A DNA stretch of 64,000 nucleotides from Patescibacteria group bacterium (GTDB lineage: Bacteria; Patescibacteriota; Patescibacteriia; UBA9934): the NCBI GenBank assembly GCA_038064675.1, contig JBBTSM010000001.1:40446-104445 (forward strand), read 5' to 3'. The position numbers and the translations under genes were made by a program. Positions 2,086 through 61,731 of this stretch are shown here, piece by piece. Within the stretch, counting starts at the first letter, position 1; the number at the start of each line of letters is the position of its first letter. Below the pieces are notes generated by a model. The model saw only the letters and a program-made list of their open reading frames with translations. It made no database searches and was not told the DNA's origin.

Positions 2086-2185
2086 TTCCGTCATTGCGAG
2101 GAGGGTAATCCCGACGCGGCAATCCAGATGAGCCTAGATTGCCACGTCGAGCGATTACGCTCTCCTCGCAATGACGGAGGTGAAT
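2086..2185 (+). repeat. Long imperfect inverted repeat (about 40-bp arms, loop CAGATGAGCCTAG) built from the same repeat module; hairpin/MITE-like element that probably also terminates mltG
   Basis: Left arm CCGTCATTGCGAGGAGGGTAATCCCGACGCGGCAATC. Right arm is its near reverse complement, GATTGCCACGTCGAGCGATTACGCTCTCCTCGCAATGACGG. Confidence 0.7.
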
Positions 2186-3225: not shown

Positions 3226-3984
3226 ATGACTTCTGATTCTATTGAGCTTCTCGGAAAACTTATTCTCGCTTTTCTTGCGTTATTTGGAGGAAAGGAGCTT
3301 TTTAATAAAATAATCTTTCAAAGGATCGAAAAGGGTGAGCGTATTGGTCGAGATAAGGTAGTTAACAATTACTACAATGTCTCGAGAGTCGGAGATCCTG
3401 ATCTGCTGCTAAGCGAATCGTCCGTCCCTTCGCGTGAACCGGTGTCTGGGGATGATGGTGACCTGGTCCCAGGTGCACTGAAAATTTTAGCAGATGCAGA
3501 CGGCTCTATCATTTTAGTATCGAGCGATATTGAAAAAGTGATCGACTTTTTTGAAAGGGTTTTTAAAGAGAACGGAAATTGGAGAAACGGTCACTGTTTG
3601 ATTATGGGCGCACTCTTTGCGCTAATTTCCCAGAGACATCGAAACCTTGAGTGGCAAGAACATTGCGCCAGCTCTCTCCGTGAACTTTTTCATCAGTGGA
3701 AGGGAAGTGAAGGTTTGATTGTTTCTGCTTTTACCAAAATAAGGCCAAAGGGGGCGAATAACTTTCCAACAGCAAAGAATGGTAGGGATCTGTATGCTAG
3801 GATGCGTTGGTACTATGAATTTTTCTCTTCGATATGTCATCATCACCATCCGGACGCTCTAGTGGCATTGAAATCCATTCGAGACGATAGGGAGATAAAA
3901 GATATATCCGACGATTTGTTTAACAAGACAGTGGCAATGTTTTTTTATGAGATGGTAGGATTCATTAGACTTACAGGAGTATGA
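3226..3984 (+). CDS. Hypothetical protein with an N-terminal hydrophobic helix; first gene of the AT-rich island
   Basis: ATG at 3226 (the track start at 3217 is TTG). No recognisable motifs. Its stop overlaps the next gene's start (ATGA at 3981-3984). GC is much lower than the flanks. Confidence 0.5.
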   Translation: MTSDSIELLGKLILAFLALFGGKELFNKIIFQRIEKGERIGRDKVVNNYYNVSRVGDPDLLLSESSVPSREPVSGDDGDLVPGALKILADADGSIILVSSDIEKVIDFFERVFKENGNWRNGHCLIMGALFALISQRHRNLEWQEHCASSLRELFHQWKGSEGLIVSAFTKIRPKGANNFPTAKNGRDLYARMRWYYEFFSSICHHHHPDALVALKSIRDDREIKDISDDLFNKTVAMFFYEMVGFIRLTGV

Positions 3985-6920
3985 AACAATTAGAATTACA
4001 TAACGCGATTGACGGGTTTTTCAGAAGCGATATCAAGCTAGCTAATCTTCAATTTGCGCAAAGTTTATTGCAGAATGAAGACTCGCGGCGTTATTTTTTC
4101 GACCAAGCCAATGAAGTATGGCTTCAATGGCTTTGGGATTTCGGATTTCTTGACGCGATTAAGGGAGGGGCGAATACCGCACCTAGAGGTGTATATCGGC
4201 TTCCCGAACTCGGCTACCTCGAGAAAATTTGTAAGATAAATCCGGTCGGAGTTTCAAAGATCATTGAATCGGTAGAGATTTCCGAAGACAATTGTAGTCC
4301 GGAAGTATTATTGAGTTTTTTAAGGATTATCGGGACTTTTCCGGTTGAACAAATTGTACCGCTCATCGATAAGATTCTATCGGAACGATGGGTTTATTTA
4401 ATGCGAGATTCAGATAGGTCGAGTTACGATTTTGAAGTGATTGTAAAAGTATTAGTGGAAAAGAAAGAGAGCGTTGGTTTGTTAAAGTTATCTCAAGCCC
4501 TTTTGACTTTAAAGGATGAGGACGATATACGAGCAAAAAACGGAGATTTTGGAAGAGACGATTTTTTCTGCGTCAAAGATATTGATGAGTCGGGTATTTT
4601 TAGTGCGCTTATTACTATTGATGAGCATTATTTAACTGCTGCACTTAAAGTTACTACGGATACCATGGCGGCTATCATTAAGATGTCAGAAGCAGATGAA
4701 GGGGGAGTCTTTGAGTATAAGGATGCATTTGGCTTATATGACGTTGATTTTTTTAATCTAGATTTTGAGGGTGGCCATACGGGCTCATATCGCGCGAATG
4801 AAAAAAACTTTGTTACAACTATAAAGGTTCTTGCCGAGAGTGAGATGAACAAGAAATCTACAGGCGACGAAGATAAGAGGTCTGTTCTTGATCTTATAGA
4901 TAATATTCCTTCGAGTCGTCTGGTGTGGAGATTGCGATTATTTGTGCTAGCGCAGCAACCTCTTTTGTTTAAGAGTGAACTTAAAGATTCGTTCTTTAGG
5001 TTGTTTGAAGGTAAAAATGATTACGATATAGAGGGTGGCGCAGAATACAAGCAAGCTTTAAAAATTTGTTTCCCCCTTTTAGACGAAGATGATCAACGGC
5101 TTTATGTTGCGAATGTCATAAATTATTTTGTAAAAAAAGCGAAAGATAATCCAGAACAGAAATGGCACAAACAAACCGGATATGAAATTCTTTCGACCGT
5201 TTTTGTTGATTTAAATGGAGCGGAGAAACAAAAGGCTGCAGAGGTTTTTGGAAAGGAATTAGATGCGGAATATGTTCCGGAGCCGTCAATCGGTCGAATG
5301 AGGTCCGGTACCGTCATATATCAAGCACCAGATGAATTAGAGAAATATACAATTAAAGAAATCATATCGAGATTAAAAACAAATTGGACGCCAGAAAGAT
5401 TATCTGAAGAGTTCAAGAGTGAAGATTATTTCCGGCCTAGAGGAGCCGAGGGGCTTTGCGAGTCTATAAAACAGGATGTAAAGAAGCGTACTGCTGACTA
5501 TCTCAATAATATTGAACTCTTCTTTGATCGTGAGAATATTCATCCTTCGTATATTCACTCATTGCTGCGCGGTATTGAAGAGATGCTCCGTAACGATCAG
5601 AGTCTTAGCTTTGAGCAAATCGAAAATGTATTTGGATTGTTCGGGCTGATAAAGATAAGTGGGGAGAGGGCGCCTTTTAAGGGTAGTGACGATAAGTCCT
5701 GGCTCGCAGATTGGATTGGGGTTCACAGTGTTGCTGTGGATGTTCTTCTTCACATTCTCAGAGATAAGACATACAGGGGGGAAAAGCATGAGGGTTCCCG
5801 TCCTTGGGTTCTTTCATTCCTTTCTTATCTCTTCACCGTTAATGGCAGCCCCTCAAGGGATGACGAAGGCCCTGAATCTAGTGAGCCGTATTCCGTCGCA
5901 ATCAATTCCGTACGAGGCAGGGCGTATGAGGCATTTGTTGTGTTGGTAGAGAACGACGGAAAGACACTAAGGGAAGATGTGAAGCCTGTATATCGAGCGA
6001 TACTTTGTGACGAATCCCTTGCGGTGAGGTTCGTCATTGGTCGCTATCTAGCCTCGTTTTATTTTCGTGACATTGATTTCGTTCGGGGTCTTTTTGCTGA
6101 AATCTTTCCTAAAGATGACTCAGAGAAAAAGGATATTTATCTCGCAAGTTGGGAGGGCTATCTTTCCAACGTTCTATACCAGAAGCTATTTATTGATCTC
6201 GGAAGCTTCTATGATCATGCGATAGCGCTGAGTCCCTCTGAATATACGAAGAGAAAATACTCAACCGGATTGGATGAGGCTCTAGGCGTGCATCTTGCGC
6301 TTGCATTTATCTACTTCGGGTTGGATATTGAAAATGATCCTTTGCTTGTTAAATTTTGGAGCATCGAGAATCCAAAAAGGCATCAGGAGTTTATATCGTT
6401 TATCGGTCGTACATGTTTGACTCAAGATGGTGCCGGGGACAGGTGGTTTAAAGAGAATAAGGTCGATAAAGAAAGACTGATAGCGTTTTGGAGCTGGGCG
6501 GTGGGGCATGTTACTGAGCCTGAAGCCTTGTCTGGTTTCGGTTTCTGGGTGAATCAGGATCACGAGATTCTGGATGACAGTTTTGTTGCAGAGAAGATGG
6601 CGGAGACACTCAAGAAATCAAATGGTGAAATAGATTGGGACTACGGTCTCTTGAGACGATTGCCGGCGCTTGCTGCAAAAAATAGTGATTCGACATTGGA
6701 GATCATTGAACATCTTCTGTTGGGTAACGATGGTAGGCTTAACCCAAATCGGCGTGTTCCATTCTTTAGTCTCGATGGAGAAATAAGAGAATCTCTTGGT
6801 GTAATTTATGACGGCAGTGATGCTGCAATGAAAGTAAGGGTTTCCGATCTGATTAGCAGACTTATTACAGAAGGTAGCAGCATGTTCTGGGGGTTGAAGG
6901 AGGTGATAAAGGAGGCTTAA
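3981..6920 (+). CDS. Large hypothetical protein (979 aa), predicted mostly alpha-helical, no recognisable catalytic motifs
   Basis: Long uninterrupted ORF with an AGGAG RBS at 3975-3979. Translationally coupled to the upstream gene. AT-rich codon usage unlike the surrounding genes. Confidence 0.6.
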   Translation: MKQLELHNAIDGFFRSDIKLANLQFAQSLLQNEDSRRYFFDQANEVWLQWLWDFGFLDAIKGGANTAPRGVYRLPELGYLEKICKINPVGVSKIIESVEISEDNCSPEVLLSFLRIIGTFPVEQIVPLIDKILSERWVYLMRDSDRSSYDFEVIVKVLVEKKESVGLLKLSQALLTLKDEDDIRAKNGDFGRDDFFCVKDIDESGIFSALITIDEHYLTAALKVTTDTMAAIIKMSEADEGGVFEYKDAFGLYDVDFFNLDFEGGHTGSYRANEKNFVTTIKVLAESEMNKKSTGDEDKRSVLDLIDNIPSSRLVWRLRLFVLAQQPLLFKSELKDSFFRLFEGKNDYDIEGGAEYKQALKICFPLLDEDDQRLYVANVINYFVKKAKDNPEQKWHKQTGYEILSTVFVDLNGAEKQKAAEVFGKELDAEYVPEPSIGRMRSGTVIYQAPDELEKYTIKEIISRLKTNWTPERLSEEFKSEDYFRPRGAEGLCESIKQDVKKRTADYLNNIELFFDRENIHPSYIHSLLRGIEEMLRNDQSLSFEQIENVFGLFGLIKISGERAPFKGSDDKSWLADWIGVHSVAVDVLLHILRDKTYRGEKHEGSRPWVLSFLSYLFTVNGSPSRDDEGPESSEPYSVAINSVRGRAYEAFVVLVENDGKTLREDVKPVYRAILCDESLAVRFVIGRYLASFYFRDIDFVRGLFAEIFPKDDSEKKDIYLASWEGYLSNVLYQKLFIDLGSFYDHAIALSPSEYTKRKYSTGLDEALGVHLALAFIYFGLDIENDPLLVKFWSIENPKRHQEFISFIGRTCLTQDGAGDRWFKENKVDKERLIAFWSWAVGHVTEPEALSGFGFWVNQDHEILDDSFVAEKMAETLKKSNGEIDWDYGLLRRLPALAAKNSDSTLEIIEHLLLGNDGRLNPNRRVPFFSLDGEIRESLGVIYDGSDAAMKVRVSDLISRLITEGSSMFWGLKEVIKEA

Positions 6921-10228: not shown

Positions 10229-12401
10229 GGTTCCCGTCCCCGATAATTTCGGATACACTTCCTTCGCTATGAAAGACTTTGTTCTCTCCAACCAGCACGC
10301 CTCGCCGAATCTTCATATTGACTATCAGGCGGAGTTGAATGAGGAGCAGTATCGCGTGGTTTCTGGCGGTGGTGGGCCGATGCTGGTACTTGCGGGTGCG
10401 GGGAGTGGAAAAACGAGAACCATTACCTATCGTGTGGCGTGGTTGCTCGAACACGGTACGCCAGTGGAGAACATGTTGTTGCTCACGTTTACGAACAAAG
10501 CGGCAAAAGAAATGATGGCGCGCGTGGAAGGATTGCTTCGCGCATATCCAACAGGATTGTGGTCTGGAACCTTTCACTCCATCGCAAACCGCATGTTGCG
10601 CATGTACGGCGCGTACACTGGCTTCGGGAGCGATTTTTCCATTTTGGACGAGGAAGATGCGAACGATTTGATGAAGATGTGTATCAAGGAGCTGAAGATC
10701 GACACGAAGGGGCGACGATTCCCGAGTGTTGGAGTGTTGCGCGGACTCTTGTCGTACGCCAACAACGCTCGTCGATCGCTTCAGTCGGTGCTGAACGACC
10801 GCGCAGAACATTTCGCGGGAATTCTTCACGAGGTGACGGCGGTTGCAGAGCGATACGCATCCGCAAAACGCACAGCGAAGGCGATGGACTTTGATGATCT
10901 CTTGCTCGAGCTCCTCAAGCTTCTTCGTGAAAACGAATCCGTTCGCACGCAATTGGCCAATCGTTTTCAATTCGTGCTCGTGGATGAGTTCCAGGACACG
11001 AACATTATTCAGTCCGACATCGTCGATCTTCTTTCGTCCGGCCATCGGAATCTTCTCGTTGTTGGCGACGACGCACAGAGTATTTACTCCTTCCGCGCCG
11101 CAGAAATTAGGAACATTCTTGATTTTCAGAAACGGTATCCGGATGCGCAATCGTATCGATTGGTGATGAATTATCGCTCCACGCCGGAGATTCTTGCGGT
11201 TGCGAACGCTGTCATCTCGAATAACAGCGAGCAGTTCGCGAAAGAACTGGTGTCGGCCAAGTCTTCTGGAGAAAAGCCAAACATTGTTCCGGCGAACGAT
11301 GCACGAGAAGAAGCGCAGTATGTTGTTGAACAGATTTTGAAGCTGATCGATGAGGGAATCGAGCTCCAGGGAATCGCGGTGCTGTTCCGTGCAGCGTTTC
11401 ACTCGCAAGCTCTGGAATTCGAGCTGATGAAGCGGGGGATTGCGTACGAATATCGTGGCGGAATGAAGTTTTTTGAACGCGCCCACATCAAGGATGCCGT
11501 TGCGCATCTTCGGCTGCTTCGAAACGGTCACGACCTTGTTGCATGGGCCAGAGCGCTGCAGATTCAACCTGGTCTTGGCATTACCACAAGCCAGAAGATT
11601 GCGGAAACGATGAGTCAGTACGACTCTGCCCGCGATGCCATTGAGGCGCCGATGAAACTTTCTCCTCGGGTACAGTCTGGATTTGCCGGAACACGATCGA
11701 TTCTCCGCATGATGTTTGCTGCACCGCTGCCGTCGGAGGCTGTGCGCGCATTTGCAAATCACGAATCGTACCGGCTGTATCTTGAAGCCGAATATCCGAA
11801 TGCGCGTGAACGGGTTGAAGACTTGGATCAGCTCGCGGTGTTTGCGGAGCAGTATCGCGATCTTGGTGCATTCTTAGACGCGATGACGTTGGCTGGCGAT
11901 TTCGCGGGAAGGATCGATGATGCGGAATCGGGAGCCCGTGAAGAGTCCGATCGAAACAAACTTATCTTGTCGACGATTCACCAGGCGAAGGGACTGGAGT
12001 GGGATGCGGTGTTCGTACTGCACTGTGCGCAAGGAACGTTCCCGAGTGATCGAAGCATGGGGCAGTCGCGGGAAATCGAAGAAGAGCGACGACTGTTCTA
12101 CGTTGCGGCGACGCGAGCGCGGTCGAAGCTATATTTCACGTATCCAATGACGACCGGGTATGAATCGGTTGAGCTTCGTCAGCAGTCCATGTTTCTTGAT
12201 GAGATTCCGTTCGGCATGGCGGAAACCGTGCGTTTACGTCGCGCAATGCCAGCTTGGAGCATGTCGTCGTCGTACAGTACGCCAACCTCGTCTCGCCATC
12301 GTGCGCACGACGAGTTTGAAGAGCCCACAATCGTTCTCGACGACATGGGGGAGAAAATGGTAAAAAAGAGTGCACCTGGTTCGTTTCTCGGCGATCATTA
12401 A
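10221..12401 (+). CDS. UvrD/PcrA-family SF1 DNA helicase (GTG start at 10221; alternative ATG at 10269)
   Basis: LNEEQYRVV...GPMLVLAGAGSGKT (Walker A), DEFQDT (Walker B) and typical UvrD motifs through VAATRAR. Confidence 0.9.
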   Translation: MAKVPVPDNFGYTSFAMKDFVLSNQHASPNLHIDYQAELNEEQYRVVSGGGGPMLVLAGAGSGKTRTITYRVAWLLEHGTPVENMLLLTFTNKAAKEMMARVEGLLRAYPTGLWSGTFHSIANRMLRMYGAYTGFGSDFSILDEEDANDLMKMCIKELKIDTKGRRFPSVGVLRGLLSYANNARRSLQSVLNDRAEHFAGILHEVTAVAERYASAKRTAKAMDFDDLLLELLKLLRENESVRTQLANRFQFVLVDEFQDTNIIQSDIVDLLSSGHRNLLVVGDDAQSIYSFRAAEIRNILDFQKRYPDAQSYRLVMNYRSTPEILAVANAVISNNSEQFAKELVSAKSSGEKPNIVPANDAREEAQYVVEQILKLIDEGIELQGIAVLFRAAFHSQALEFELMKRGIAYEYRGGMKFFERAHIKDAVAHLRLLRNGHDLVAWARALQIQPGLGITTSQKIAETMSQYDSARDAIEAPMKLSPRVQSGFAGTRSILRMMFAAPLPSEAVRAFANHESYRLYLEAEYPNARERVEDLDQLAVFAEQYRDLGAFLDAMTLAGDFAGRIDDAESGAREESDRNKLILSTIHQAKGLEWDAVFVLHCAQGTFPSDRSMGQSREIEEERRLFYVAATRARSKLYFTYPMTTGYESVELRQQSMFLDEIPFGMAETVRLRRAMPAWSMSSSYSTPTSSRHRAHDEFEEPTIVLDDMGEKMVKKSAPGSFLGDH

Positions 12402-12402
12402 T

Positions 12403-12659
12403 TTTTCCGTCATCCCCGCGTAGGCGGGGATCCAGTATCATTGCAAGCTGGTGGCTCGGATATACATTCTTTTGCACTCCGCGCGAATCCCCGACGCTGC
12501 AACGTCTCGTTTGCACTCGACTGCAGCTGAGGGGCGCGTGCTCGTTGGAAGAATGTATCCTCTCCACTGGCGCTCGCGATGTCAGTCTCACTCGCCCAAT
12601 TTGCTCAAGGGTAATCCCGATCGCCCAAGCGCAGCGATCGCTCATCTTTCCTCTCCACT
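12403..12659 (+). repeat. Modular intergenic repeat of about 257 bp, copy A: TTCCGTCAT + palindrome ATCCCCGCGTAGGCGGGGAT + conserved body + GGGTAATCCCGATCGCCC tail. It fills the whole uvrD / malic-enzyme spacer
   Basis: High identity along its full length to 18932-19202 and partly to 24052-24195. Confidence 0.85.
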
Positions 12660-18931: not shown

Positions 18932-19202
18932 TTCCGTCATCACTTTTCCTTAGTCATCCCCGCGCAGGCGGGGATCCAGAATTCATCGCGAGCTGGTGGC
19001 TCGGGTACATGTTTCTTCACTGTGCGTGAACGCCATCACGCCGTAACGTCTCGCTTGCGCTCGACTACTGCTGGATGGGTGCACTGCTCGTCGCGAAACA
19101 CGCACCCTCGCCACTGGCGATCGCGATATTCATCTCACTCGCTCAATTCGCTCAAGGGTAATCCCGATCGCCCGCGCGTAGCGCTCGCTCATCCATCTTT
19201 CT
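18932..19202 (+). repeat. Modular intergenic repeat of about 270 bp, copy B (TTCCGTCAT ... GTCATCCCCGCGCAGGCGGGGATCCAG ... GGGTAATCCCGATCGCCC); fills the GH5 / trmH spacer
   Basis: Aligns with 12403-12659 along its length. Begins 6 nt after a stop and ends at the next start codon. Confidence 0.85.
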
Positions 19203-19880: not shown

Positions 19881-21057
19881 TGTTTTGCAGCAGCATGGCG
19901 CTGCGCGACGGGGCACCTTGAATACCATGCACGGCGTCGTAGAAACGCCGGTGTTTATGCCGATCGCCACGGCTGGTGCGTTAAAGACGTTGTTGCCAAG
20001 CGAGGTGACGAATCTTGGCGCGTCGATTATTTTGGGGAACACGTATCACCTTTTGCTTCGCCCGGGCGAAGAGGAATTGAAGAAGCTCGGCGGCGTTCGA
20101 TCATTTATGCATTGGGACGGTCCGTTGCTGACGGATAGTGGGGGATACCAAGTGTTTAGTTTGTCCAAGTTGAATAAGACAGACGACGATGGCGTAACGT
20201 TTCAGTCACATATCGACGGGAGTTCGCATCGGCTTACTGCGGAACGATCGATGGAAATTCAAGATGCAATTGGTTCGTCCATTCGCATGCAGTTCGACGA
20301 CGTCGCGGCAGGAAATTCGACTCGCGATCGGTACACGGAAGCGATGGAACGATCGCTCCGTTGGGCCGCGCGATCGAAGGCAAAATTTAATGAACTTGTT
20401 TCCACGACAACCCTCCCCCTTACGAAGGGGGAGTTGGAGGGGGTCCGACCATTACTCTTTGGCATCATCCAAGGTGGCACACACCTCGATCTTCGCGCGC
20501 GATCGCTTCAGGGCCTTACTGATATCGGCTTTGATGGATACGCGATTGGCGGACTTTCTGTTGGCGAATCGCGTGAGGACGCATTTCGTATTGTGCGATC
20601 GTTGGCAAAAGAAATGCCAACGGATCGGCCACGATATTTTATGGGCGGTGGAATGCCAGAAGAAATTGTTGCGTATGTTTCGTTTGGTGTGGACATGTTC
20701 GATTGTGTGTTGCCTACACGCAACGCTCGGCACGGATCGTTGTTTGTCTGGAAGGGAAATCCAAAGGATGCAGTTCGCGAGGCGTTTACTCGGGCAATGG
20801 ACGGCGCGGCAGATTTTCGTATCGCGGAAGCGTTGTACGAAAAGATCCAAATCACGAACGAACGATTTACTGCCGACGAAACACCGATTGATTTCTGGAA
20901 TGACGCTGAAACGTCAAAAACGTTTTCTCGGGCGTATCTGCGTCATCTTTTTAAAACCGGTGAAACGCTCGGACTTCGGCTGGCAACACTGCAAAATCTG
21001 GGCTTTTATCTGAGAATGATGGAGGAACTTCGTGAATGCACAGCGAATCCCTTGTGA
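19852..21057 (+). CDS. tgt: Queuine tRNA-ribosyltransferase carrying a roughly 15-aa in-frame insertion (TTLPLTKGELEGVRP)
   Basis: Aligns with E. coli Tgt from GVVETPVFMP through MFDCVLPTRNARHG. The insertion sits before the FGIIQGG block, where E. coli has only GNKNA. Confidence 0.9.
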   Translation: MNAPSKSPFSVLQQHGAARRGTLNTMHGVVETPVFMPIATAGALKTLLPSEVTNLGASIILGNTYHLLLRPGEEELKKLGGVRSFMHWDGPLLTDSGGYQVFSLSKLNKTDDDGVTFQSHIDGSSHRLTAERSMEIQDAIGSSIRMQFDDVAAGNSTRDRYTEAMERSLRWAARSKAKFNELVSTTTLPLTKGELEGVRPLLFGIIQGGTHLDLRARSLQGLTDIGFDGYAIGGLSVGESREDAFRIVRSLAKEMPTDRPRYFMGGGMPEEIVAYVSFGVDMFDCVLPTRNARHGSLFVWKGNPKDAVREAFTRAMDGAADFRIAEALYEKIQITNERFTADETPIDFWNDAETSKTFSRAYLRHLFKTGETLGLRLATLQNLGFYLRMMEELRECTANPL

Positions 21058-24051: not shown

Positions 24052-24195
24052 CATCGCGAGCTGGTGGCTCGGATACATTCTTCTGCACTCCGCGCGAATC
24101 CCCTACGCTGCGACGTCTCGCTGATGCTCGACTGCAGCTGTGGGGCGGCGTGCTCGTTGGAAGAATGTATCCTCACCACTGGCGTTCGCGATGAC
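24052..24195 (+). repeat. Modular intergenic repeat, partial copy C (central body only); downstream of secF
   Basis: CATCGCGAGCTGGTGGCTCGGATACATTCTT...GTGCTCGTTGGAAGAATGTATCCTC.CCACTGGCG.TCGCGATG is collinear with 12436-12590. Confidence 0.8.
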
Positions 24196-29589: not shown

Positions 29590-30033
29590 ATGACCGACGA
29601 CGAAAAAATCCAGCTTGGCGCGGTGCTCGAAATCGTCCAGTCCATGCAGAAGACCATGGTCGCAATGCAGGATGATATTGGGGCAATTCAGGGCGTTATG
29701 GCCACGAAGGATGATCTCAAGAATTTCGCCACGAAAGATGACCTTAAGAATTTTGCTACGAAAGGCGACCTTAAGAATTTTGCCACGAAGGATGACGTTA
29801 CTGATATTCGGGGCGATATTGCGGCCATTAAGGAAGATGTTGAGTTCCTTAAAGACAGTGTGGCTACGAAGGATGATCTCGGCAGTCTCAAATCCGAGGT
29901 TTTCGAACACATCGATGGCTTTGCGCAGCAGAACCAGAAGTTCGATATCGAGTTGGTTGCGGCAAGGTCCCAGTTCAATCGGGTAGAAGAACGTGTGGAG
30001 GTTTTAGAATTGAAAGCGGGGATTGGGGCGTAA
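29590..30033 (+). CDS. Small coiled-coil protein with 9-aa tandem repeats (ATKDDLKNF x3+)
   Basis: ORF with three and a half perfect 27-bp DNA repeats at 29701-29808. Confidence 0.5.
   Translation: MTDDEKIQLGAVLEIVQSMQKTMVAMQDDIGAIQGVMATKDDLKNFATKDDLKNFATKGDLKNFATKDDVTDIRGDIAAIKEDVEFLKDSVATKDDLGSLKSEVFEHIDGFAQQNQKFDIELVAARSQFNRVEERVEVLELKAGIGA
29701..29808 (+). repeat. 27-bp in-frame tandem repeat (3.5 units)
   Basis: GCCACGAAGGATGATCTCAAGAATTTC / GCCACGAAAGATGACCTTAAGAATTTT / GCTACGAAAGGCGACCTTAAGAATTTT / partial unit. Confidence 0.9.
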
Positions 30034-35770: not shown

Positions 35771-37744
35771 ATGGTCACTCTCCGTGAACGCGATGGTGGA
35801 ACATATGGGAAACGCCTCCGAATGTTGCGAGGTGTTCTTTTTGCTGTCTTTGGCGTGATTTGGATCCGATTATTCGTGCTTCAGGTGGTTTCTGCCCAGT
35901 TTTATCAAGACATCGCCAACGGGAAATATTCGCTGTACGAAGAGCTGGTTCCAGAACGCGGCAAGATCACCGTTCACGATTTTGATGATTCTACGCCATA
36001 CGACGTGGCAACGAACGAGCCTCGAGCGGTAGTGACTGCGGATCCTCGAAAAATCACGGACGCGACCGACGCGGGTAAACGCATCGCGCAGGCGTTGGGA
36101 TGGGAAGGTGTAGACGAATACGATCGCTACGCGCTGATCGCGAGCCTTGAGGCTCAAGGAAAACAGGACGAAGCCGACTCGCTCCGATCATTGACGGCAT
36201 GTGCTCCCCTTACGAAGGCGCTCGACGAGCCTGAGTTGGGCGAGGAGAGCGTAGTTGGAGGGGGTGTCGACTCCGATGTTGCCGATGTCACTCCGACCCC
36301 ACCCCCCGAACCCGTCGCGGAGTCCGATGAATGCCTTCAGGAAGACGCGAACGTCAAAAAGATTACTGATCTTATCGCGCGTCTTGGAAAGCACGACGAT
36401 CCATATGAGCCGGTCGCCGAGGGTGTCGATGCAGAATCGCTTGATCGGTTGTTGGCTCTGAACATCGACGGCATTTCATATGTCCTCAAGGATTCGCGAT
36501 CGTATCCAGAAAAGGGATTCGGTGGCCATGTACTCGGATTTGTGGGAAAGGACGATTCGGATAACCCAGTGGGGAATTATGGGCTGGAGGGATACTTTAA
36601 TGATTTTCTTTCAGGAAAGCCGGGGGAGATTTCATCTCAGCTCGCGAGTAGAGCATATACCCCAGCGATTGACGGTGGTTCGTTAATGCTGACGATTGAT
36701 CGCACGGTGCAGTACACCGCATGCAAGATGCTTCGCGACGGTGTGCAGCAATATCATGCCGATACCGGCGTGCTCGTTATTGTGGAGCCATCTACGGGAA
36801 GAATCCTCGCGATGTGCGGCAGTCCAGATTTTGACCCAGCAGAGTATTCGAAAGTCGGAAGCATTTCTGATTTTAATAACCAGGCAGTTTTTACGCCGTA
36901 CGAACCGGGATCGATTTTTAAACCGTTTACGCTTGCGGCAGGTATTGATACGGGCGCAATTACGCCAAATACAATTTTCGACGATCCTGGATTTGTAAAA
37001 CTTGATGACCGAACCATTCGCAACGCGCTCCAGAAGTCGTATGGAAAGATTACGATGACCCAGGGTCTTGAAGAATCGGTGAACACCGCAATGGTGTATG
37101 CCATGCAGCGCACCGGAAAAGACACGTTTACGCAGTACGTCAAAAACTTTGGATTTGGAACGCTCACAGGTATCACGCTGAACACAGAAGTTTCAGGAAC
37201 CGTTGCGTTGCTCGATGAACCAGGAATTGTGTATGCCGGCACCGCGAGTTTCGGGCAAGGCATCACAGCAACTCCACTACAGGTTGTGATGGGCTATGCC
37301 GCAATCGCGAACGGCGGAGCGTTGATGGTTCCACAAATTGTGGATCAGATGGAATATTCCGACGGCACCATTGATAAAAAACTGCCAGTAAAAATTCGTC
37401 AGGTTATCGACGCAAAGACTGCGGCCACGGTTGGGGGAATGCTCGTGTCTGTGGTGGAGAATGGCCATGGAAAGCGCGCATCGGTTCCGGGATATTGGAT
37501 TGCAGGTAAAACGGGAACCGCGCAGATTGCTGAAAACGGTGGATATTCAGAGACTGCGTTTAATGGATCGTTTGCAGGATTTGGTCCTGTTGAAGATCCA
37601 AAATTTGCGATGATCGTAAAGCTTTCCAATCCAAAGACCGTCTCCAACCTTGGTGTAGCATGGGGCGAGGCAACTGCCGCTCCAGTGTTTGGTGAAATCG
37701 CAAAGTTCCTTATGCAGTACTACCGCATTCCACCGACGAGGTAG
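35771..37744 (+). CDS. Penicillin-binding protein (class B transpeptidase, PBP2/FtsI-like) with an in-frame repeat-element insertion
   Basis: N-terminal TM helix. SxxK (GSIFKPF), SxN (ESVNTA) and KTGT (AGKTGTAQ) motifs. Insertion APLTKALDEPELGEESVVGGGVDSD... at 36204-36266. Confidence 0.85.
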   Translation: MVTLRERDGGTYGKRLRMLRGVLFAVFGVIWIRLFVLQVVSAQFYQDIANGKYSLYEELVPERGKITVHDFDDSTPYDVATNEPRAVVTADPRKITDATDAGKRIAQALGWEGVDEYDRYALIASLEAQGKQDEADSLRSLTACAPLTKALDEPELGEESVVGGGVDSDVADVTPTPPPEPVAESDECLQEDANVKKITDLIARLGKHDDPYEPVAEGVDAESLDRLLALNIDGISYVLKDSRSYPEKGFGGHVLGFVGKDDSDNPVGNYGLEGYFNDFLSGKPGEISSQLASRAYTPAIDGGSLMLTIDRTVQYTACKMLRDGVQQYHADTGVLVIVEPSTGRILAMCGSPDFDPAEYSKVGSISDFNNQAVFTPYEPGSIFKPFTLAAGIDTGAITPNTIFDDPGFVKLDDRTIRNALQKSYGKITMTQGLEESVNTAMVYAMQRTGKDTFTQYVKNFGFGTLTGITLNTEVSGTVALLDEPGIVYAGTASFGQGITATPLQVVMGYAAIANGGALMVPQIVDQMEYSDGTIDKKLPVKIRQVIDAKTAATVGGMLVSVVENGHGKRASVPGYWIAGKTGTAQIAENGGYSETAFNGSFAGFGPVEDPKFAMIVKLSNPKTVSNLGVAWGEATAAPVFGEIAKFLMQYYRIPPTR

Positions 37745-37756
37745 TCCGTGACAAAG

Positions 37757-37920
37757 CCCTCCCCTTACGAAGGCGCTCGACGAGCTGAAGCGGGTGAGGA
37801 GAGTGAGTTAGGAGGGGTCTGATCGTGAAGTGACCTTGGATGGATGTGATGAGAACGGCAGGAGTGACGCATTATCGGCGACGCTCGTCGAGCCTGAGTT
37901 GGGCGAGGAGGGTGAGGGGT
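37757..37920 (+). repeat. Two intergenic copies of the CCCTCCCCTTACGAAGG / CGCTCG(A/T)CGAGC CTGAGTTGGGCGAGGAG repeat unit also found inside the PBP gene
   Basis: 37757-37820 and 37878-37920 match 36204-36266. Confidence 0.8.
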
Positions 37921-38294
37921 ATTCGATTTCAAACAGGGTGTTTTGTTAACGCAACTCATTTGCGTTAAGAAAACGCTGGTCGATTGTAGCGATCTGCGTG
38001 GTCGGCGATAATGCCAGTTACGATCATTGATCGTGTATTTCTGAAATCGATTTCATTGTTTCTCGATTTCCGGCTCAGATCACATTGTGTTGCTCAGTTT
38101 TAAAGCCTCAAAATTCGAGGGTATCGATTCCTGCCGCAGTACCTCGCACTCCCGGAGTTCACGAGCCCCCTCCTTCTCCCCCATCCCCATCCGGGGACAA
38201 GTAAATGGGGGAGGGCTATCACCATCCCGTCACAACCCCTCAAAGGGTCAGTTGAGGTTCACTTTTCCCCCATTTTCCCCTACACTGCCTGCAT

Positions 38295-39584
38295 ATGAAA
38301 CCCATCGTTATTCGCGTCCTTCGATACTTAGCCAAGCGGCAAATCGCTCAGTTTCACCCAATGGTGATTGCGGTCACGGGAAGCGTGGGGAAGACGAGCA
38401 CCAAGAATGCGATTGCGATTGCGCTGGGTGCAGCATTCGATGTGCGAACGGCGAATAAAAACTACAACAACGAGTTTGGTGTGCCATTGGCGATTATGGG
38501 GGAGATGAGCCCGGGCAAGAATGTGTGGGAGTGGCTGAAGCTTTTTGTACGTCAGTACAACGTGAAGAAATTTCCAACGCATCTTGTTTTGGAATACGGC
38601 GCCGATCGCCCTGGCGACATTCAAGCGTCGTGTGATATTGCCAAGCCGGATGTTGCGGTGATTACGGCAATCTCACCGGTGCATGCATCAAACTACACGA
38701 ACTTCGGCGCGCTTGCGGACGAGAAGGCAACGCTCGGTGACAATGTGAAAGAAGACGGATTGGTCATTTTGAATGCGGACGATCAGACGGTGAACCTCAT
38801 GCGCGATCGCTTCACAGCAACAACGGCAACGTACGGAAAGTCGGGCCGACAGGCGAACATCAAAGATATTTACGTGAAGACGGTACTTAATGACCATTAT
38901 GTGCTGAATGATGTCGCAGTACTGACGAAGGCAGCAATCGAGATTGATGGCGAAACGGTGGACTTGAAGCTTCCGAATTGTTTGGGCGACACGCCGGTGT
39001 TCGCGTGTGCTGCAGCGCTTCTCGTTGCTAAGCATTGCGACGTTCCGTTGAAGAAGGCTGCGAAAGCGCTGAATGAGTCGTTTGCTCCCGCACCTGGGCG
39101 CCTTCGACCGCTTGCCGGGGTGAAAGGCTCGTTGATCCTCGACGATACATACAACGCTGCTCCAGCATCTACCATCGCCGCACTCGACGCTCTCACATTG
39201 TTTACGGCGGATCGACCGGGAAGCCGGCGAATCGCCGCGCTGGGAAAGATGGCAGAGCTTGGGCAATATTCCGAAGCCGAGCATGCAGCAGTCGGTCGTC
39301 GAGTTTCTGAAGTTGCTGATATCTTTGTTGCTACTGGAAGTGAAATGCAGGGTGCCGCCGATGAAGCTGAGCGCATGGGAATGAAGCTGTCGTCAGTAGT
39401 TCGTGTGCACGACGCAGTGGAGGCTGGCCGATGGCTTGATGCGAATGTGAAAGAAGGCGATATCGTCCTCGTGAAAGGCTCCCAAAGTGCGCGCATGGAA
39501 AAAGCGACAAAAGATATCGTCGCAGAGCCGTTGCGCGCATCGGAGCTTTTGGTGCGACAAGAAAAGTATTGGCTGAAGAATTAG
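38295..39584 (+). CDS. murF: Mur ligase family protein, MurF-like (UDP-MurNAc-tripeptide--D-Ala-D-Ala ligase)
   Basis: ATP-binding VIAVTGSVGKTSTK. Mur ligase middle and C-terminal motifs. Confidence 0.8.
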   Translation: MKPIVIRVLRYLAKRQIAQFHPMVIAVTGSVGKTSTKNAIAIALGAAFDVRTANKNYNNEFGVPLAIMGEMSPGKNVWEWLKLFVRQYNVKKFPTHLVLEYGADRPGDIQASCDIAKPDVAVITAISPVHASNYTNFGALADEKATLGDNVKEDGLVILNADDQTVNLMRDRFTATTATYGKSGRQANIKDIYVKTVLNDHYVLNDVAVLTKAAIEIDGETVDLKLPNCLGDTPVFACAAALLVAKHCDVPLKKAAKALNESFAPAPGRLRPLAGVKGSLILDDTYNAAPASTIAALDALTLFTADRPGSRRIAALGKMAELGQYSEAEHAAVGRRVSEVADIFVATGSEMQGAADEAERMGMKLSSVVRVHDAVEAGRWLDANVKEGDIVLVKGSQSARMEKATKDIVAEPLRASELLVRQEKYWLKN

Positions 39585-40183: not shown

Positions 40184-40689
40184 TCATTATAGAGAAGCCC
40201 GGTGATCTTTGATCCGCTTCCCCAAATTCTGTTGAATGTTTCTTCGCGATGATCTTTTGACGACGTGTTTTGTATGGTTGTTTCTGGGTTGAGTATCAGT
40301 TGTCGAAGGTTCGATCGCGTTCCAATATATATCTCACTGAGTCCGGTGATAAATTGACCGGCCGTTGGATCGATGATGATATCGGTGTCGGGCGTGAGAC
40401 CTTTTACAACAAGATACGCATGATTCGGGTGATATTCACTCGTTGTATCATCGGAAGTTGCCAATCGAATTCCGGGAATTTTTTCAACAAGCAACGAGCC
40501 GACTTCGTTGGCTATTGTTGCACAGTGCGCGCGCGTTCTGCATTCTTTTATCCGTTCTGCCGCAAATGCACTCAAATGTTCCCTAGATTGATCTACTGCC
40601 GAGCGCACGTTTTCAACTTCATAGTGCTTCACTTCTGGCGTGAGTGGTCGATTCTCAGAAAAATCCCATGTTGGAAAGTCTTTGTTCAT
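40180..40689 (-). CDS. Hypothetical protein (169 aa)
   Basis: ORF convergent with tsaC. No recognisable motifs. Confidence 0.45.
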   Translation of the reverse strand: MNKDFPTWDFSENRPLTPEVKHYEVENVRSAVDQSREHLSAFAAERIKECRTRAHCATIANEVGSLLVEKIPGIRLATSDDTTSEYHPNHAYLVVKGLTPDTDIIIDPTAGQFITGLSEIYIGTRSNLRQLILNPETTIQNTSSKDHREETFNRIWGSGSKITGLLYND

Positions 40690-53479: not shown

Positions 53480-53779
53480 TTGCCGTTTCTGGGGAAAAAG
53501 AAACTGATCTTGGAATGGGTTGTGACGGAGCGACAGCGAGACTGACAGTATTCGTGGCCCGGCATGCTGGATTTTCGAATTGGCGAGTGTCAAGTCCGCT
53601 TTACACTCTTTTGATAGAAAACCCCAATGAAAATGCGTATGGATGTGTAAAGACCTCTTTACACTCGTGGATCGGGAAATCGAGCATGCCCTCCTCGCCG
53701 ATGATGCCGGTTCATCGCAATTCCTATCACAACCCACTAAAAGATCAGTTCAGGGCTCACCCCTGGGGACAAATTTCTT

Positions 53780-53820
53780 TTGACACTTTTTTGTTAGCAC
53801 TCTATACTACCGAGTGCTAA
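53780..53820 (+). promoter_or_regulatory. hrcA promoter (TTGACA-17-TATACT) overlapping a perfect CIRCE operator (TTAGCACTC-N9-GAGTGCTAA at 53794-53820)
   Basis: Exact CIRCE consensus with a 9-nt spacer containing the -10 hexamer, 20 nt upstream of hrcA. Confidence 0.9.
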
Positions 53821-53839: not shown

Positions 53840-54535
53840 ATGAACACGCGTCAATCTCATATTTTACAGCTCGTGGTGGACGAATACGTCCGGACGGCTG
53901 AGCCAGTCAGTTCCCAGGCTCTTTGCGCTGGGTTCGATCTGGATTGTTCTCCGGCCACGGTCCGAAACGACATGATGGCGCTGGAAGAAGAAGGGCATTT
54001 GTATCAACCCCACACGTCATCTGGCAGAGTTCCCACGGAAGAAGGCTATCGGTACTACCTAGCCAACGTGGTGCAAGCCAAGCAGCCGAAGGTCGCTACC
54101 GAGCTCCGAAGCGCGATGGAGGAGATTCGATCGCTTGAATCGAAAATCCAATTCCTCGGGCGCCGACTTGCCGATCTTTCCGGGGATGCCGTCATCGTCA
54201 CCAATGAACATCAAACGTCGGCCCTCGGCGTGGCAAACCTTCTGCGAAAGCCGGATTTCAAGGAGGACAACATGCTCCTCGCGTTGGCCGAAGACATCGA
54301 GCGCCTTGAGCGCGATGCCACCAGCGTGATGAACGTTGCCCCGAGCGAGGTCCGAATCCTTCTCGGCGAAGAAAGCCCCATGGGCAAACGCCTCGCCACC
54401 GTCATCGTCCGCCACCAGTTACCAAACGGCGAAATCGGCGTCCTCAGTATCGTAGGTCCTCTGCGAATGAACTACGCAAGAAACGTTGCTCTCCTTTCCG
54501 AAGCAAAAAGAATTTTAGAAGAAAATGATTTGTAA
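53840..54535 (+). CDS. hrcA: Heat-inducible transcription repressor HrcA (short form)
   Basis: N-terminal wHTH ILQLVVDEYVRTAEPVSSQAL. Sits in the CIRCE/dnaK operon context. Confidence 0.85.
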   Translation: MNTRQSHILQLVVDEYVRTAEPVSSQALCAGFDLDCSPATVRNDMMALEEEGHLYQPHTSSGRVPTEEGYRYYLANVVQAKQPKVATELRSAMEEIRSLESKIQFLGRRLADLSGDAVIVTNEHQTSALGVANLLRKPDFKEDNMLLALAEDIERLERDATSVMNVAPSEVRILLGEESPMGKRLATVIVRHQLPNGEIGVLSIVGPLRMNYARNVALLSEAKRILEENDL

Positions 54536-54538
54536 ATT

Positions 54539-55114
54539 ATGACGGACGAAGAATTGAAAGACGAAGAGGGCAAAGGGCAGGGGGCAGAGGAATCCGTCAT
54601 CCCAAATGACTCTGGTCATCCCCGCGCAGGCGGGGATCCATCATCGGACCTCGAAGCTCTCCAGCAGAAATGCGCCGAATACCTTCACGGCTGGAAGCGT
54701 GCCCTCGCAGACTACGAAAATCTGCAAAAGCAAAACTCCAGCGCTCGTGACGACGACCGCCGACGCGTTCGATCGAATTTGGCGGAGGATCTGCTCCCCG
54801 TCGTCGACAACTTCGGCTACGTCACCAAGCACGTCCCCGACATCACCGCTTGTCCCGACGACTTTAAGAAAAAGTTCGACACCTGGTTCCAAGGCATCGG
54901 CCACATCGAACGCCAATTCGCGGAAGCGATGAAGAACATGGGAGTTGAGGCGATCCCAAGTGTCGGAACCATCTTCGACCCAAACCTCCACGAAAGTGGT
55001 GGCTCACGATCGGAGCCTGGAAAGAAAGAACACGAGATCATCGAGGAACTCATCAAAGGCTGGAAGATCGGTGACGTCGTGTTGCGACCTGCAAAAGTAA
55101 TCGTTAATGAATAA
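54539..55114 (+). CDS. grpE: Nucleotide exchange factor GrpE (N-terminal region contains a palindromic repeat unit in frame)
   Basis: Coiled-coil plus a C-terminal beta domain. Lies upstream of dnaK. Confidence 0.85.
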
Positions 55115-60084: not shown

Positions 60085-61731
60085 ATGGCCGAAACGCTTT
60101 ACCGAAAATACCGTCCACAGTGCTTTGCGGATGTTGCGGAACAGGAGCACGTTTTACGAACAATTCAGCAGCAGTTGGCAAAGAATACGGTTGCACATGC
60201 GTATCTGTTTTCTGGTCCACGCGGGACGGGAAAAACGACTATCGCCCGATTGCTCGCGAAGGCGCTCAACTGCGAGAACCGCAAGGCGGGGGAGTCGGAG
60301 CCGTGTAACACGTGTTCCTCGTGTACCGACTTTGCGTCGGGCAGATTCATGTCGTGCATCGAGATCGACGCCGCATCGCAAACTGGCGTCGACAATGTTC
60401 GCGATAACATCATCGAGAACGCGCGCTTCGCTCCAAGCCGCGGGTCGTTCAAGGTATTTATTCTCGACGAAGTTCACATGCTTTCCGGTTCGTCATTCAA
60501 CGCGTTATTGAAGACGCTCGAAGAACCGCCGGCACATGCTATTTTCATTCTCGCAACAACCGAGCTTCATAAAATCCCCGCAACCATCGCGTCACGCTGC
60601 CAGCGTTTCGAGTTTCATCGCGTGCCGCCAGTAGTGATGATGCCGCGCCTGAAGAAGATTTCGGAAGCCGAGGGCTTCACGATCGACGACGATGTTCTTG
60701 CGCAGATTGCTCGCTTGAGTGAGGGCTGTTTGCGCGACGCAGAAAGTTTGCTCGGGCAAGTGCTCGCGCTGGGTGAAAAGAACGTCACACTCGCGGTGGC
60801 CTCGTTGGTATTGCCGATGACGAATATTGCCGTTGTTACCGATATCGTCGATGCAGTTGCGGTGAATGATGCGCAAAAGGCGCTGAAAATTGTCGGAACA
60901 TTTGTTGCTGACGGGGGTTCGATAAAACATCTCATCGAAGAGCTTCTTGAATACGTTCGTACGGTGATGTTCGCCGCATTCGGCGACACCACGATGGATG
61001 CGTACGACACGAAGACCGTTGAGCGATTGCGCGCAGCGGGATCGGTATTCGGAGTTTCTCGATCTCAAATGTTCCTCGACGCGCTGTTGTCCGCAAGAAC
61101 GCGATCGAGCTTGCCGGCAATCCCGCAGATCCCACTTGAGATTGCGATTTTGGATGTGTGTTCACCTCCCCCCGACCCCCTCCTTCGAAAGGAGGGGGAG
61201 AGGTCGGCGACATCGCTCCCCCTTACGAAGGGGGAGTCGGAGGGGGTGAAGAGAGCGATTGCCGCTCCCGCCGCCCGAGTGATTCCTGTCCTTCCTCCGT
61301 CACGTGTCATCGAAGAGCCAGCCACCCCAGACGCACCGATTCGATACGACTTTGCACCAATTCAGCAAATGGAATCTGTTGTTGCGGATCAGCCGTCGGG
61401 ATTAGCAGAAGCGCCAATCTTTCCCCTCGAGGAAATCGTGAACAAATGGGAACGGTGTATCGCGATCATCGCAGAAGACAACGTGGCACTTCCGCTCGTT
61501 CTTCGTGGCGCTGTTCCGGTGAAGGTTGAAGGATCGGTGGTGACGATTTCCTGTGCGTACGCGTTTCACGCCGATGCATTGAAAGAAGCAAAAGCAAGAA
61601 CGCTCGTTGAAGATGCGATTGAAAAAGTATTGCAACAGCGCGTAACAATCGTTTCCGTTCATGTTCCCGTAAAAGAAACGAGCGACGCAGTAACAGACTT
61701 CGTCAGTCAGCTCGGCGGGTCTCTTGCATAA
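60085..61731 (+). CDS. dnaX: DNA polymerase III subunit gamma/tau, with two palindromic repeat units inserted in frame in the linker after domain III
   Basis: AHAYLFSGPRGTGKTT, zinc module CxxC...C, ILDEVHMLS and SRCQRF motifs. Insertion SPPPDPLLRKEGERSATSLPLTKGESEGV at 61165-61248. Confidence 0.9.
   Translation: MAETLYRKYRPQCFADVAEQEHVLRTIQQQLAKNTVAHAYLFSGPRGTGKTTIARLLAKALNCENRKAGESEPCNTCSSCTDFASGRFMSCIEIDAASQTGVDNVRDNIIENARFAPSRGSFKVFILDEVHMLSGSSFNALLKTLEEPPAHAIFILATTELHKIPATIASRCQRFEFHRVPPVVMMPRLKKISEAEGFTIDDDVLAQIARLSEGCLRDAESLLGQVLALGEKNVTLAVASLVLPMTNIAVVTDIVDAVAVNDAQKALKIVGTFVADGGSIKHLIEELLEYVRTVMFAAFGDTTMDAYDTKTVERLRAAGSVFGVSRSQMFLDALLSARTRSSLPAIPQIPLEIAILDVCSPPPDPLLRKEGERSATSLPLTKGESEGVKRAIAAPAARVIPVLPPSRVIEEPATPDAPIRYDFAPIQQMESVVADQPSGLAEAPIFPLEEIVNKWERCIAIIAEDNVALPLVLRGAVPVKVEGSVVTISCAYAFHADALKEAKARTLVEDAIEKVLQQRVTIVSVHVPVKETSDAVTDFVSQLGGSLA

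Follow-up and report, generated by a model that had tools for sequence, protein, structure and literature searches.

The stretch of DNA analysed here (the window) comprises 64,000 nt from a Patescibacteria group bacterium (positions 40,446 to 104,445 of contig JBBTSM010000001.1, assembly GCA_038064675.1) and includes the gene of a class B penicillin-binding protein (PBP), followed by a 550-nt spacer and a murF-like Mur ligase gene. Within the PBP gene lies an in-frame composite repeat, copy A, and two relatives of it, copies B and C, lie in the spacer. In what follows, H denotes a short hairpin element, M a 33-nt module that is nested in it, and L a larger non-coding element that fills most of the spacer and has a counterpart on a contig (L076) of a Candidatus Uhrbacteria metagenome-assembled genome (MAG). 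The features of the locus are as follows.

35771-37744, + strand: class B penicillin-binding protein, FtsI/PBP2-like, 657 aa (open reading frame and Pfam)
36200-36334, + strand: hypervariable loop of this protein, Cys144 to Cys188, a permissive site that holds copy A (ortholog alignment and AlphaFold2 model)
36204-36266, + strand: copy A, composite H+M, residues 145-166 of the protein (sequence and alignment)
37757-37820, + strand: copy B, full-length diverged H+M, non-coding (alignment score 42)
37826-38253, + strand: long copy of L, ~430 nt, non-coding (aligned with L076 1675-2099)
37882-37914, + strand: copy C, only the module M, lying within the 5' portion of L (alignment)
38166-38215, - strand: H-like hairpin, reversed, in the 3' part of the long L copy (sequence CCCCCTCCTTCTCCCCCAT...ATGGGGGAGGG)
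38295-39584, + strand: murF-like Mur ligase downstream of the PBP (Pfam Mur_ligase_M and Mur_ligase_C)

Two nested repeats and their copies

Copy A, CTCCCCTTACGAAGG-CGCTCGACGAGCCTGAGTTGGGCGAGGAGAGCG-TAGTTGGAGGGGGTG, consists of a left arm of H (36204-36218), the module M (36219-36251) and a right arm of H (36252-36266). As the initial annotation had it, the repeat is in frame in the open reading frame 35771-37744, where it is read as APLTKALDEPELGEESVVGGGV at residues 145-166. Two of its three sense frames are closed by stop codons (TGA from CCTGAGTT, TAG from GCGTAGTT), and the single open frame of the + strand reads PLTKALDEPELGEESVVGGG.

The resemblance between the copies, which had been proposed by eye, holds when scored formally. 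Smith-Waterman alignment of copy A against the PBP-murF spacer gives a score of 42 for copy B and, once B is masked, of 28 for copy C, compared with a mean of 10.0 (sd 1.5) and a maximum of 18 among 1000 dinucleotide-preserving shuffles; BLAST within the window gives E-values of 2.8e-10 and 4.3e-9. Copies A and B can be aligned from end to end (2 one-base gaps in 61 columns) and are identical at 27 of 27 positions on the left (36204-36230 and 37759-37785), a 27-mer that had zero chance matches in 100 shuffles of the window. Copy B begins 12 nt past the PBP stop codon and adjoins L; its M-like module (37774-37805) agrees with the other M copies at 24-27 of 33 positions, and the whole copy is missing both from the L-element locus of L076 and from the spacer of the 92%-identical PBP ortholog on contig L001. 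Thus, the two spacer relatives that had been annotated are both present, but only the first is a full-length copy: the other has in common with copy A merely the inner 29-33 nt (28 of 29 positions identical between 36219-36247 and 37882-37910), holds the inner 33-nt module only and is part of the larger L repeat. The DNA of the PBP loop and of the PBP-murF spacer is identical in two further assemblies of the same organism, ENA ERZ1292628 and NCBI GCA_964357295.1, so that the repeat is not an assembly artefact of one contig.

The unit therefore is composite, as proposed, in the specific sense of nesting: it is made of two nested repeats, H and M, rather than being a local duplication. The H element, ~33-45 nt long, has the form CTCCCCCTT-ACG-AAGGGGGAG-TYGGAGGGGGT and comprises a hairpin with a 9-bp stem and a 3-nt loop, followed by a second G-rich arm (window form CGACAWCSCTCCCCCTTACGAAGGGGGAGTYGGAGGGGGT). 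The 33-nt module M, CGCTCGACGAGCCTGAGTTGGGCGAGGAGAGYG, is placed between the AAGG of H and GAGTYGGAGGGGG; in the ~63-nt composite copy A it accordingly stands between AAGG and (T)AGTTGGAGGGGG, and its ends are inverted (CGCTC/GAGCG). Across six loci in at least three assemblies the M sequences agree at 28-33 of 33 positions while their flanks differ, and the M of a MurD gene (L128) matches that of the L element in L076 at 33/33.

The copies counted amount to three of L, seven of M and at least ten of H type, each to be read as "at least", the census having been based on ~160 kb of related sequence (about 162 kb for L) and two pattern scans. When genome contigs were scanned with the pattern GCTCGWCGAGCN{5,8}GGGNGAGGAG, only two of the matches listed were real, both in a single Ca. 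Uhrbacteria MAG, and nearly all of the remaining listed matches were chance hits in high-G+C genomes. Scans of viral sequences with M, H and a conserved L segment returned nothing. The occupancy of homologs by H was taken from alignments; peptide regular expressions applied to 240 homologs missed known cases.

The host protein and its variable loop

Pfam assigns residues 61-288 of the PBP to PBP_dimer and residues 333-644 to Transpeptidase, and a 100% identical protein is on record as penicillin-binding protein 2 of a Patescibacteria group bacterium from a Hainich groundwater MAG. The repeat had been placed in the linker that joins the dimerisation domain to the transpeptidase domain; it actually lies in a loop inside the PBP_dimer (pedestal) region. 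The description of the host stretch as variable, acidic and proline-rich stands. Alignment of PBP orthologs reveals a hypervariable site with differing occupancy among relatives: from the conserved 'ACAP' motif to the conserved 'S-x-x-C' motif the sequences cannot be aligned and differ in length, and copy A fills the first half of this loop. In the AlphaFold2 model, residues 147-183 have pLDDT (predicted local distance difference test) values < 50 and lack secondary structure, between helices at 132-139 and 186-205, so that the loop is predicted to be disordered, and we infer that it is exposed on the extracytoplasmic pedestal domain. Cys144 and Cys188 are both present in 26 of 32 aligned orthologs, and a disulfide between them probably closes the loop. 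As a separate observation, this co-conserved pair suggests a disulfide-closed surface loop specific to the present Patescibacteria clade.

The loop has been occupied independently in three orthologs, with elements at three different positions and in two frames. The ortholog on contig L005 has GCTCCCCCTTACGAAGGGGGAGT, then a different inner module, then GGGGGTG, read as PPYEGGVGLSSEALAKDEGGV; that on L006 has a short H whose loop differs in sequence, TCTCCCCCTTCACAAGGGGGAGTCGGAGGGGGTG, translated as SPPSQGGVGGGV; both differ from copy A in position as well as in frame. In the closest ortholog, that on L001 (92% identical protein), the loop has no recognisable element and instead contains an unrelated stretch of nearly equal length, after which the alignment resumes (..VDSDVADV..PEPV.ESDEC). 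Given this near-equality of length, the element replaced part of the loop and was not a plain addition. The L005 element itself (10528-10570, in the loop of ortholog P0006) is an H with a different nested module, AGGCTTGTCGTCCGAAGCCTTGGCGAAGGACGAA, and H seems, from this case, to be a recurrent host for other mini-insertions.

Occurrence in other genes

The repeats are not peculiar to the PBP locus: besides other PBP orthologs, they occur in the genes of tRNA-guanine transglycosylase (Tgt), DnaX, MurD and PilB. Comparison of the window with itself, which the annotation had recommended, revealed shorter relatives at 20405-20444 and 61208-61247, the latter within a doublet.

20405-20444, + strand: short H in frame in Tgt, ..TLPLTKGELEGV.. 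(self-comparison)
61164-61250, + strand: H-type hairpin doublet in frame in DnaX, ..PPPDPLLRKEGERSATSLPLTKGESEGV.. (self-comparison)

The Tgt copy amounts to an 11-residue loop insertion relative to the solved structures of the Zymomonas enzyme, and the DnaX doublet sits in a variable part of that protein. MurD holds the composite form just ahead of the P-loop in a Hainich contig of 284 kb, which comes from the same groundwater site (..LPLLTKALDEPELGEESGAGG..), and MurD of another metagenome (P0129) holds it as well. A copy in antisense orientation is found in a Ca. Uhrbacteria MAG (L049), where it lies in the low-complexity N-terminal region of a PilB-type ATPase. The peptide is the same in PBP and MurD because stop codons close the other two sense frames of the composite. 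Translation of the short H gives LPLTKGExEGV in Tgt, DnaX and the MurD ortholog P0123, and the close variants LPLNKGESEGV and PPLMNGEKEGV in MurD P0124-P0126.

The MurD site is polymorphic among 19 aligned orthologs, being empty in nine, occupied by H in one frame in four and in another frame in one, by H+M in two, and by divergent inserts in three. The empty allele (L132) reads ...GAGCGCAAGGGAAGGGGGAAGATTGTTGGC; an H allele (L133), which is exactly 33 nt longer, has CTCCCCCTTACGAAGGGGGAGCCGGAGGGGGTC; and the H+M alleles (L128 and L134) have CGCTCGACGAGCCTGAGT(T/C)GGG(C/T)GAGGAGAGT(G/C) between AAGG and the distal G arm. Thus M stands between AAGG and GAGTCGGAGGGG in the H+M alleles, where the short H has GG. 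A position for the MurD insert taken from a phmmer alignment to PDB sequences was rejected, the insert having been mis-placed through local similarity; the ortholog alignment decided the matter. The same MurD orthologs (P0121-P0171) are mosaics in which two types of C-terminal half, FCTTPAAALAAIEVFQDRL and ISTTPQSALAAIDVFEKDL, are variously joined to the N-terminal half, a pattern in the sequences that suggests frequent recombination between related populations.

The L element and the PBP-murF spacer

The 550-nt spacer is made up of copy B and L. The long L copy of the window and that of L076 agree over ~430 nt with 79% mean column identity (MAFFT) or 73% (BLAST), and the L076 element lies upstream of a RelA/SpoT gene, not beside a PBP. 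A third copy is shorter:

53502-53750, - strand: short copy of L, 249 nt, intergenic, upstream of hrcA (BLAST with the L076 element matches both ends)

All three have in common inverted ends of ~24 bp, AACTGATCTTGGAGTGGGTTGTGA; in the short copy they are AACTGATCTTTTAGTGGGTTGTGA and AACTGATCTTGGAATGGGTTGTGA, which match at 21 of 24 positions. The short copy lacks M exactly at ATCGGCG|AGGAGGG and also lacks the reversed H-like hairpin, which both long copies have near their 3' end; at the corresponding place L076 has ACCCCCTCCAACTCCCCCTTGGCAGGGGGAGGG, the reverse complement of H with another loop. Next to the short copy, just upstream of hrcA (53840-54535), positions 53794-53820 hold an inverted repeat of the CIRCE type (controlling inverted repeat of chaperone expression), TTAGCACTC-N9-GAGTGCTAA.

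Two other readings of this region were considered and discarded. The ~430-nt block is not a conserved PBP-murF spacer, being found upstream of relA in L076 and missing from the spacers of L001 and L006. The L001 spacer (214 nt) instead holds a member of a ~200-nt repeat family that is also present at 12439-12646 of the window, and the L006 spacer (168 nt) an inverted pair of GTCATCCCCGCGCAGGCGGGGAT hairpins, a third type of repeat. Nor does copy C belong to a known RNA such as tmRNA or RNase P, neither Rfam nor ARAGORN having found one in the spacer. With Rfam 15, no match above gathering score was obtained in the window, L076, L049 or L128 except for a tRNA and a group I intron elsewhere, and the matches in 37600-38400 were at chance level only. 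The intron lies on the contig that bears the L076 element (5928-6148, - strand).

A two-sequence consensus fold of the long L copies contains nine two-sided pair changes. With two sequences, a structured RNA and a palindromic DNA element cannot be told apart, and L could be either a miniature inverted-repeat transposable element (MITE) or an undescribed structured RNA.

Predicted folding

Folded as RNA, copy A yields a single coaxial stem-loop of -31.6 kcal/mol (z = -3.8), the C arm of H pairing with the distal G arm around M; M by itself gives a well-defined hairpin of -14.2 kcal/mol (z = -2.8), which is interrupted by two GA/GA internal loops and accounts for 61% of the ensemble. Under DNA parameters, the composite copies are no stabler than shuffles (z ~0, +0.7 and -1.0), a difference that stems from the G-U pairs and GA loops. 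The DnaX doublet does fold as DNA (-32 kcal/mol, z = -5.6). Pairing is kept in 98% of the stem cells of the six M sequences, and where the stem varies, at three positions, the changes give wobble-compatible pairs only; no two-sided compensatory change occurs in the M stems of these six sequences, a number at which shuffle controls are uninformative.

Comparison with known repeat systems

Palindromic repeats that reside in frame in genes are a hallmark of Rickettsia (PMC10969869) and, together with the intragenic REPs and the MITEs described below, are the closest analogues of the present family. These Rickettsia palindromic elements (RPEs; Ogata et al. 2000, as summarised in PMC10969869 and PMC3733652) are ~100-150 bp long, confined to Rickettsia and divided into ten sequence families. 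RPEs resemble the present repeats in being palindromic and non-coding by themselves, in lying many times in frame in unrelated housekeeping genes where they are translated at places compatible with the protein fold, and in also occupying spacers. In-frame residence in unrelated genes is likewise found here (PBP, Tgt, DnaX, MurD, and PilB). The elements of 33-63 nt described here are, in contrast, G+C-rich and nested and occur in Patescibacteria; size and lineage, rather than a formal sequence comparison, set them apart from RPEs, to which they bear no apparent resemblance in sequence.

A second point of comparison is provided by repetitive extragenic palindromes (REPs) and the hairpin-forming doublets built from them (REPINs), for which mobilisation by a tyrosine (IS200-like) transposase acting on single-strand hairpins has been proposed (PMC3116915). 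These are imperfect palindromes of 20-40 nt, some of them in inverted doublets, as here in DnaX, that are dispersed and in part intragenic; H, with its 9-bp stem and 3-nt loop, is such a palindrome. Intragenic REPs have been reported in several bacteria, some in replication genes, and REP superfamilies bear a GTAG or CGTC tetranucleotide tag at one end (PMC3733652). No such tag stands beside H in Tgt, DnaX, MurD or PBP, and only copy A has an internal GTAG. Furthermore, REPs are mainly extragenic, whereas most H and H+M copies are inside open reading frames, and no gene of a REP-associated tyrosine transposase (RAYT) was found in the part of the genome examined, ~62 kb around the site.

The L element, for its part, resembles MITEs in its size (~250-430 nt), its ~24-bp inverted ends, its lack of coding capacity, its occurrence in several contexts and its presence or absence at orthologous spacers. 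Terminal inverted repeats are thus found in L, and in H+M the module M is enclosed by paired C-rich and G-rich arms; small, non-coding, dispersed copies with presence/absence polymorphism are found at the MurD site, in the PBP loop and in the PBP-murF spacer. In-frame fusions of MITEs with host open reading frames are known (PMC10969869). No target-site duplication was identified for L, nor an insertion sequence whose ends would mark it as the parent; the pair-preserving changes between its two long copies could instead point to a structured RNA.

Nesting of very small repeats is also reportedly a property of the small dispersed repeats (SDRs) of cyanobacteria described by Elhai and colleagues in 2008, which are said to be tens of nucleotides long and to form mosaics by nesting in other repeats. 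The present repeats show similar nesting but differ from SDRs in lineage and sequence. Lacking the tag of the REP superfamilies, being mostly intragenic and being much smaller than RPEs, H would work like these known elements while standing outside the families described for them. A limited literature search found no papers on such repeats in Patescibacteria, which is weak evidence of their absence from the literature.

Other repeats in the window

Several further repeats were seen. A CGTC-tagged, REP-like hairpin family, (C)GTCATCCCCGCGYAGGCGGGGATCC, separate from H, is present at 12409-12438, 18953-18982 and 54615-54644, and the PBP-murF spacer of L006 (11972-12039) contains it as a REPIN-like inverted doublet. 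Members of the ~200-nt family occupy 12439-12646, 18984-19193 and 24052-24193 (the spacer between UvrD and malic enzyme, a spacer before SpoU and one after SecF), each window copy being preceded by the CGTC-tagged hairpin; in L001 the family is found at ~3700-3790, in the PBP-murF spacer. Repeats of the type GTCATTGCGAGGAGGGTAATCCCGACGCGGCAATC stand at 852-892 and 2087-2177, the latter forming a ~90-nt near-perfect hairpin, with a GTCATCCTGAGCGAAGCGAAGGATCT unit near them at 903-930. The segment GCGAGGAGAGCGTA of copy A recurs at 2156-2169 (- strand), which hints at mosaic relations between families. Finally, five in-register 27-nt tandem or near-tandem repeats, GCCACGAAGGATGATCTCAAGAATTTC, lie at 29701-29889 and probably represent a 9-residue coding repeat.

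Discussion

The structural and comparative evidence points to copy A being, probably, a small hairpin-forming interspersed selfish repeat, itself nested, that is tolerated in a protein loop. With comparable assurance, we regard the G+C-rich family with its three layers, H, M and L, as one of an Uhrbacteria-like lineage of Patescibacteria. Under this proposal, H, M and L would behave as non-autonomous selfish DNA, with copies being gained and lost at orthologous sites between close relatives and surviving only where they do little harm, whether in spacers or as in-frame segments of surface loops and linkers. The H+M copy in the PBP would simply be translated as 22 extra or replaced residues.

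The sequences themselves establish the repeat family, its nesting, its in-frame residence, the polymorphism of its sites and its tolerance in loops; from these we infer mobility, as well as its mechanism. The likeliest routes would be transposition guided by single-strand hairpins, with the transposase provided in trans, or recombination between copies over short patches. The strand-specific hairpins would be compatible with the former, by analogy with the route proposed for REPs and REPINs (PMC3116915). Short-patch recombination or template switching fits at least as well as transposition, given the G-run of MurD and the equal-length replacement in the PBP.

Several observations weigh against interpreting the repeats as mobile selfish DNA. 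No Pfam match to a transposase or RAYT-like family was obtained among the genes called over ~62 kb, from ~9.8 kb in the window to 7.7 kb past its end. No target-site duplication could be defined: at the MurD site the flanks of H show no clear one, and in the L element M has GGCG on its flanks, which is also compatible with alignment ambiguity. The empty MurD site already has GGAAGGGGGAAG, which resembles the G arm of H, and this pre-existing G-run could mean microhomology-driven copying rather than transposition. At the PBP, the similar length of what was replaced means that simple cut-and-paste insertion is not demonstrated there. The census covers the related sequence and the pattern scans named above, not whole genomes. 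Finally, conservation is higher in M than around it, and its three variable stem pairs all still pair, which would fit a selected function as well.

Such a function is the substance of the main alternative, namely that M or the composite stem-loop is a selected functional RNA or single-stranded DNA hairpin kept in several cell-envelope genes, conceivably as a protein-binding site, as a signal for mRNA stability or translation pausing, or as a partner of an L-element RNA. The well-defined RNA hairpin of M (z = -2.8), the coaxial stem-loop of composite A (z = -3.8), the pairing of 98% of the M stem cells with variation only to pairs that are wobble-compatible on this strand, the agreement of M at 28-33 of 33 positions across six loci despite variable flanks, the location of several M copies in or beside peptidoglycan genes (PBP, MurD, and upstream of murF) and the nine two-sided pair changes between the two L copies all speak for it. 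However, M itself is devoid of two-sided compensatory change (with six sequences, shuffle controls being uninformative), the PilB copy is antisense to the host mRNA, close PBP and MurD orthologs are entirely without the element, no Rfam family corresponds to it, and the apparent enrichment in cell-wall genes is biased, the search having started from a PBP. We therefore consider a selected hairpin unlikely. A broader form of the idea, in which L is an undescribed structured RNA of ~250-430 nt and M a functional 33-nt tandem-GA hairpin module, neither of them being junk, appears to us distinctly unlikely; if it were true, M could be an RNA-protein recognition unit, or could be among the smallest independently mobile DNA units known, and its presence in PBP and MurD mRNAs and upstream of murF would imply a common post-transcriptional control of cell-envelope genes.

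The proximity of the three copies invites the simpler idea of a purely local duplication or gene conversion between PBP and spacer, in either direction, with no wider family involved: A, B and C lie within 1.7 kb, A equals B over the left 27 nt and matches C at 28 of 29 positions in the middle, and the similar-length replacement in the PBP resembles a conversion patch. As a full explanation, this is contradicted by the same modules in Tgt, DnaX, MurD and PilB, upstream of relA and in other PBP orthologs, and we hold it to be very improbable; local conversion may nevertheless have been the source of copy A, though not of the family. Hardly more credible is the notion that the peptide PLTKALDEPELGEES(V/G)xGGG is a functional motif swapped between proteins, with the DNA similarity as a by-product. 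It draws on the same frame and nearly the same peptide in the PBP and two MurD orthologs, and on the reading of the short H as LPLTKGExEGV or close variants in Tgt, DnaX and several MurD proteins. Yet there are non-coding copies (B, C, and that of L076) and an antisense one in PilB, L005, L006 and MurD P0127 use a second frame of H, the shared frame of the composite is forced by the stops in the other two, and the host sites, in unrelated enzymes of which some are extracytoplasmic and others cytoplasmic, are loops or disordered regions.

If the repeats are indeed selfish elements, as we favour, selfish DNA inside genes of the kind known from Rickettsia would extend to the streamlined genomes of Patescibacteria and would have reached essential genes of cell-wall synthesis and replication (PBP, MurD, DnaX, and Tgt). 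Such repeats yield spurious "motifs", inflate loops when proteins are aligned or their structures predicted, and cause assemblies to break. At the same time, they would mark permissive sites in host proteins, and the repeated occupation of the same loops by variants in relatives would amount to a natural experiment on insertion tolerance and on the movement of tiny repeats.

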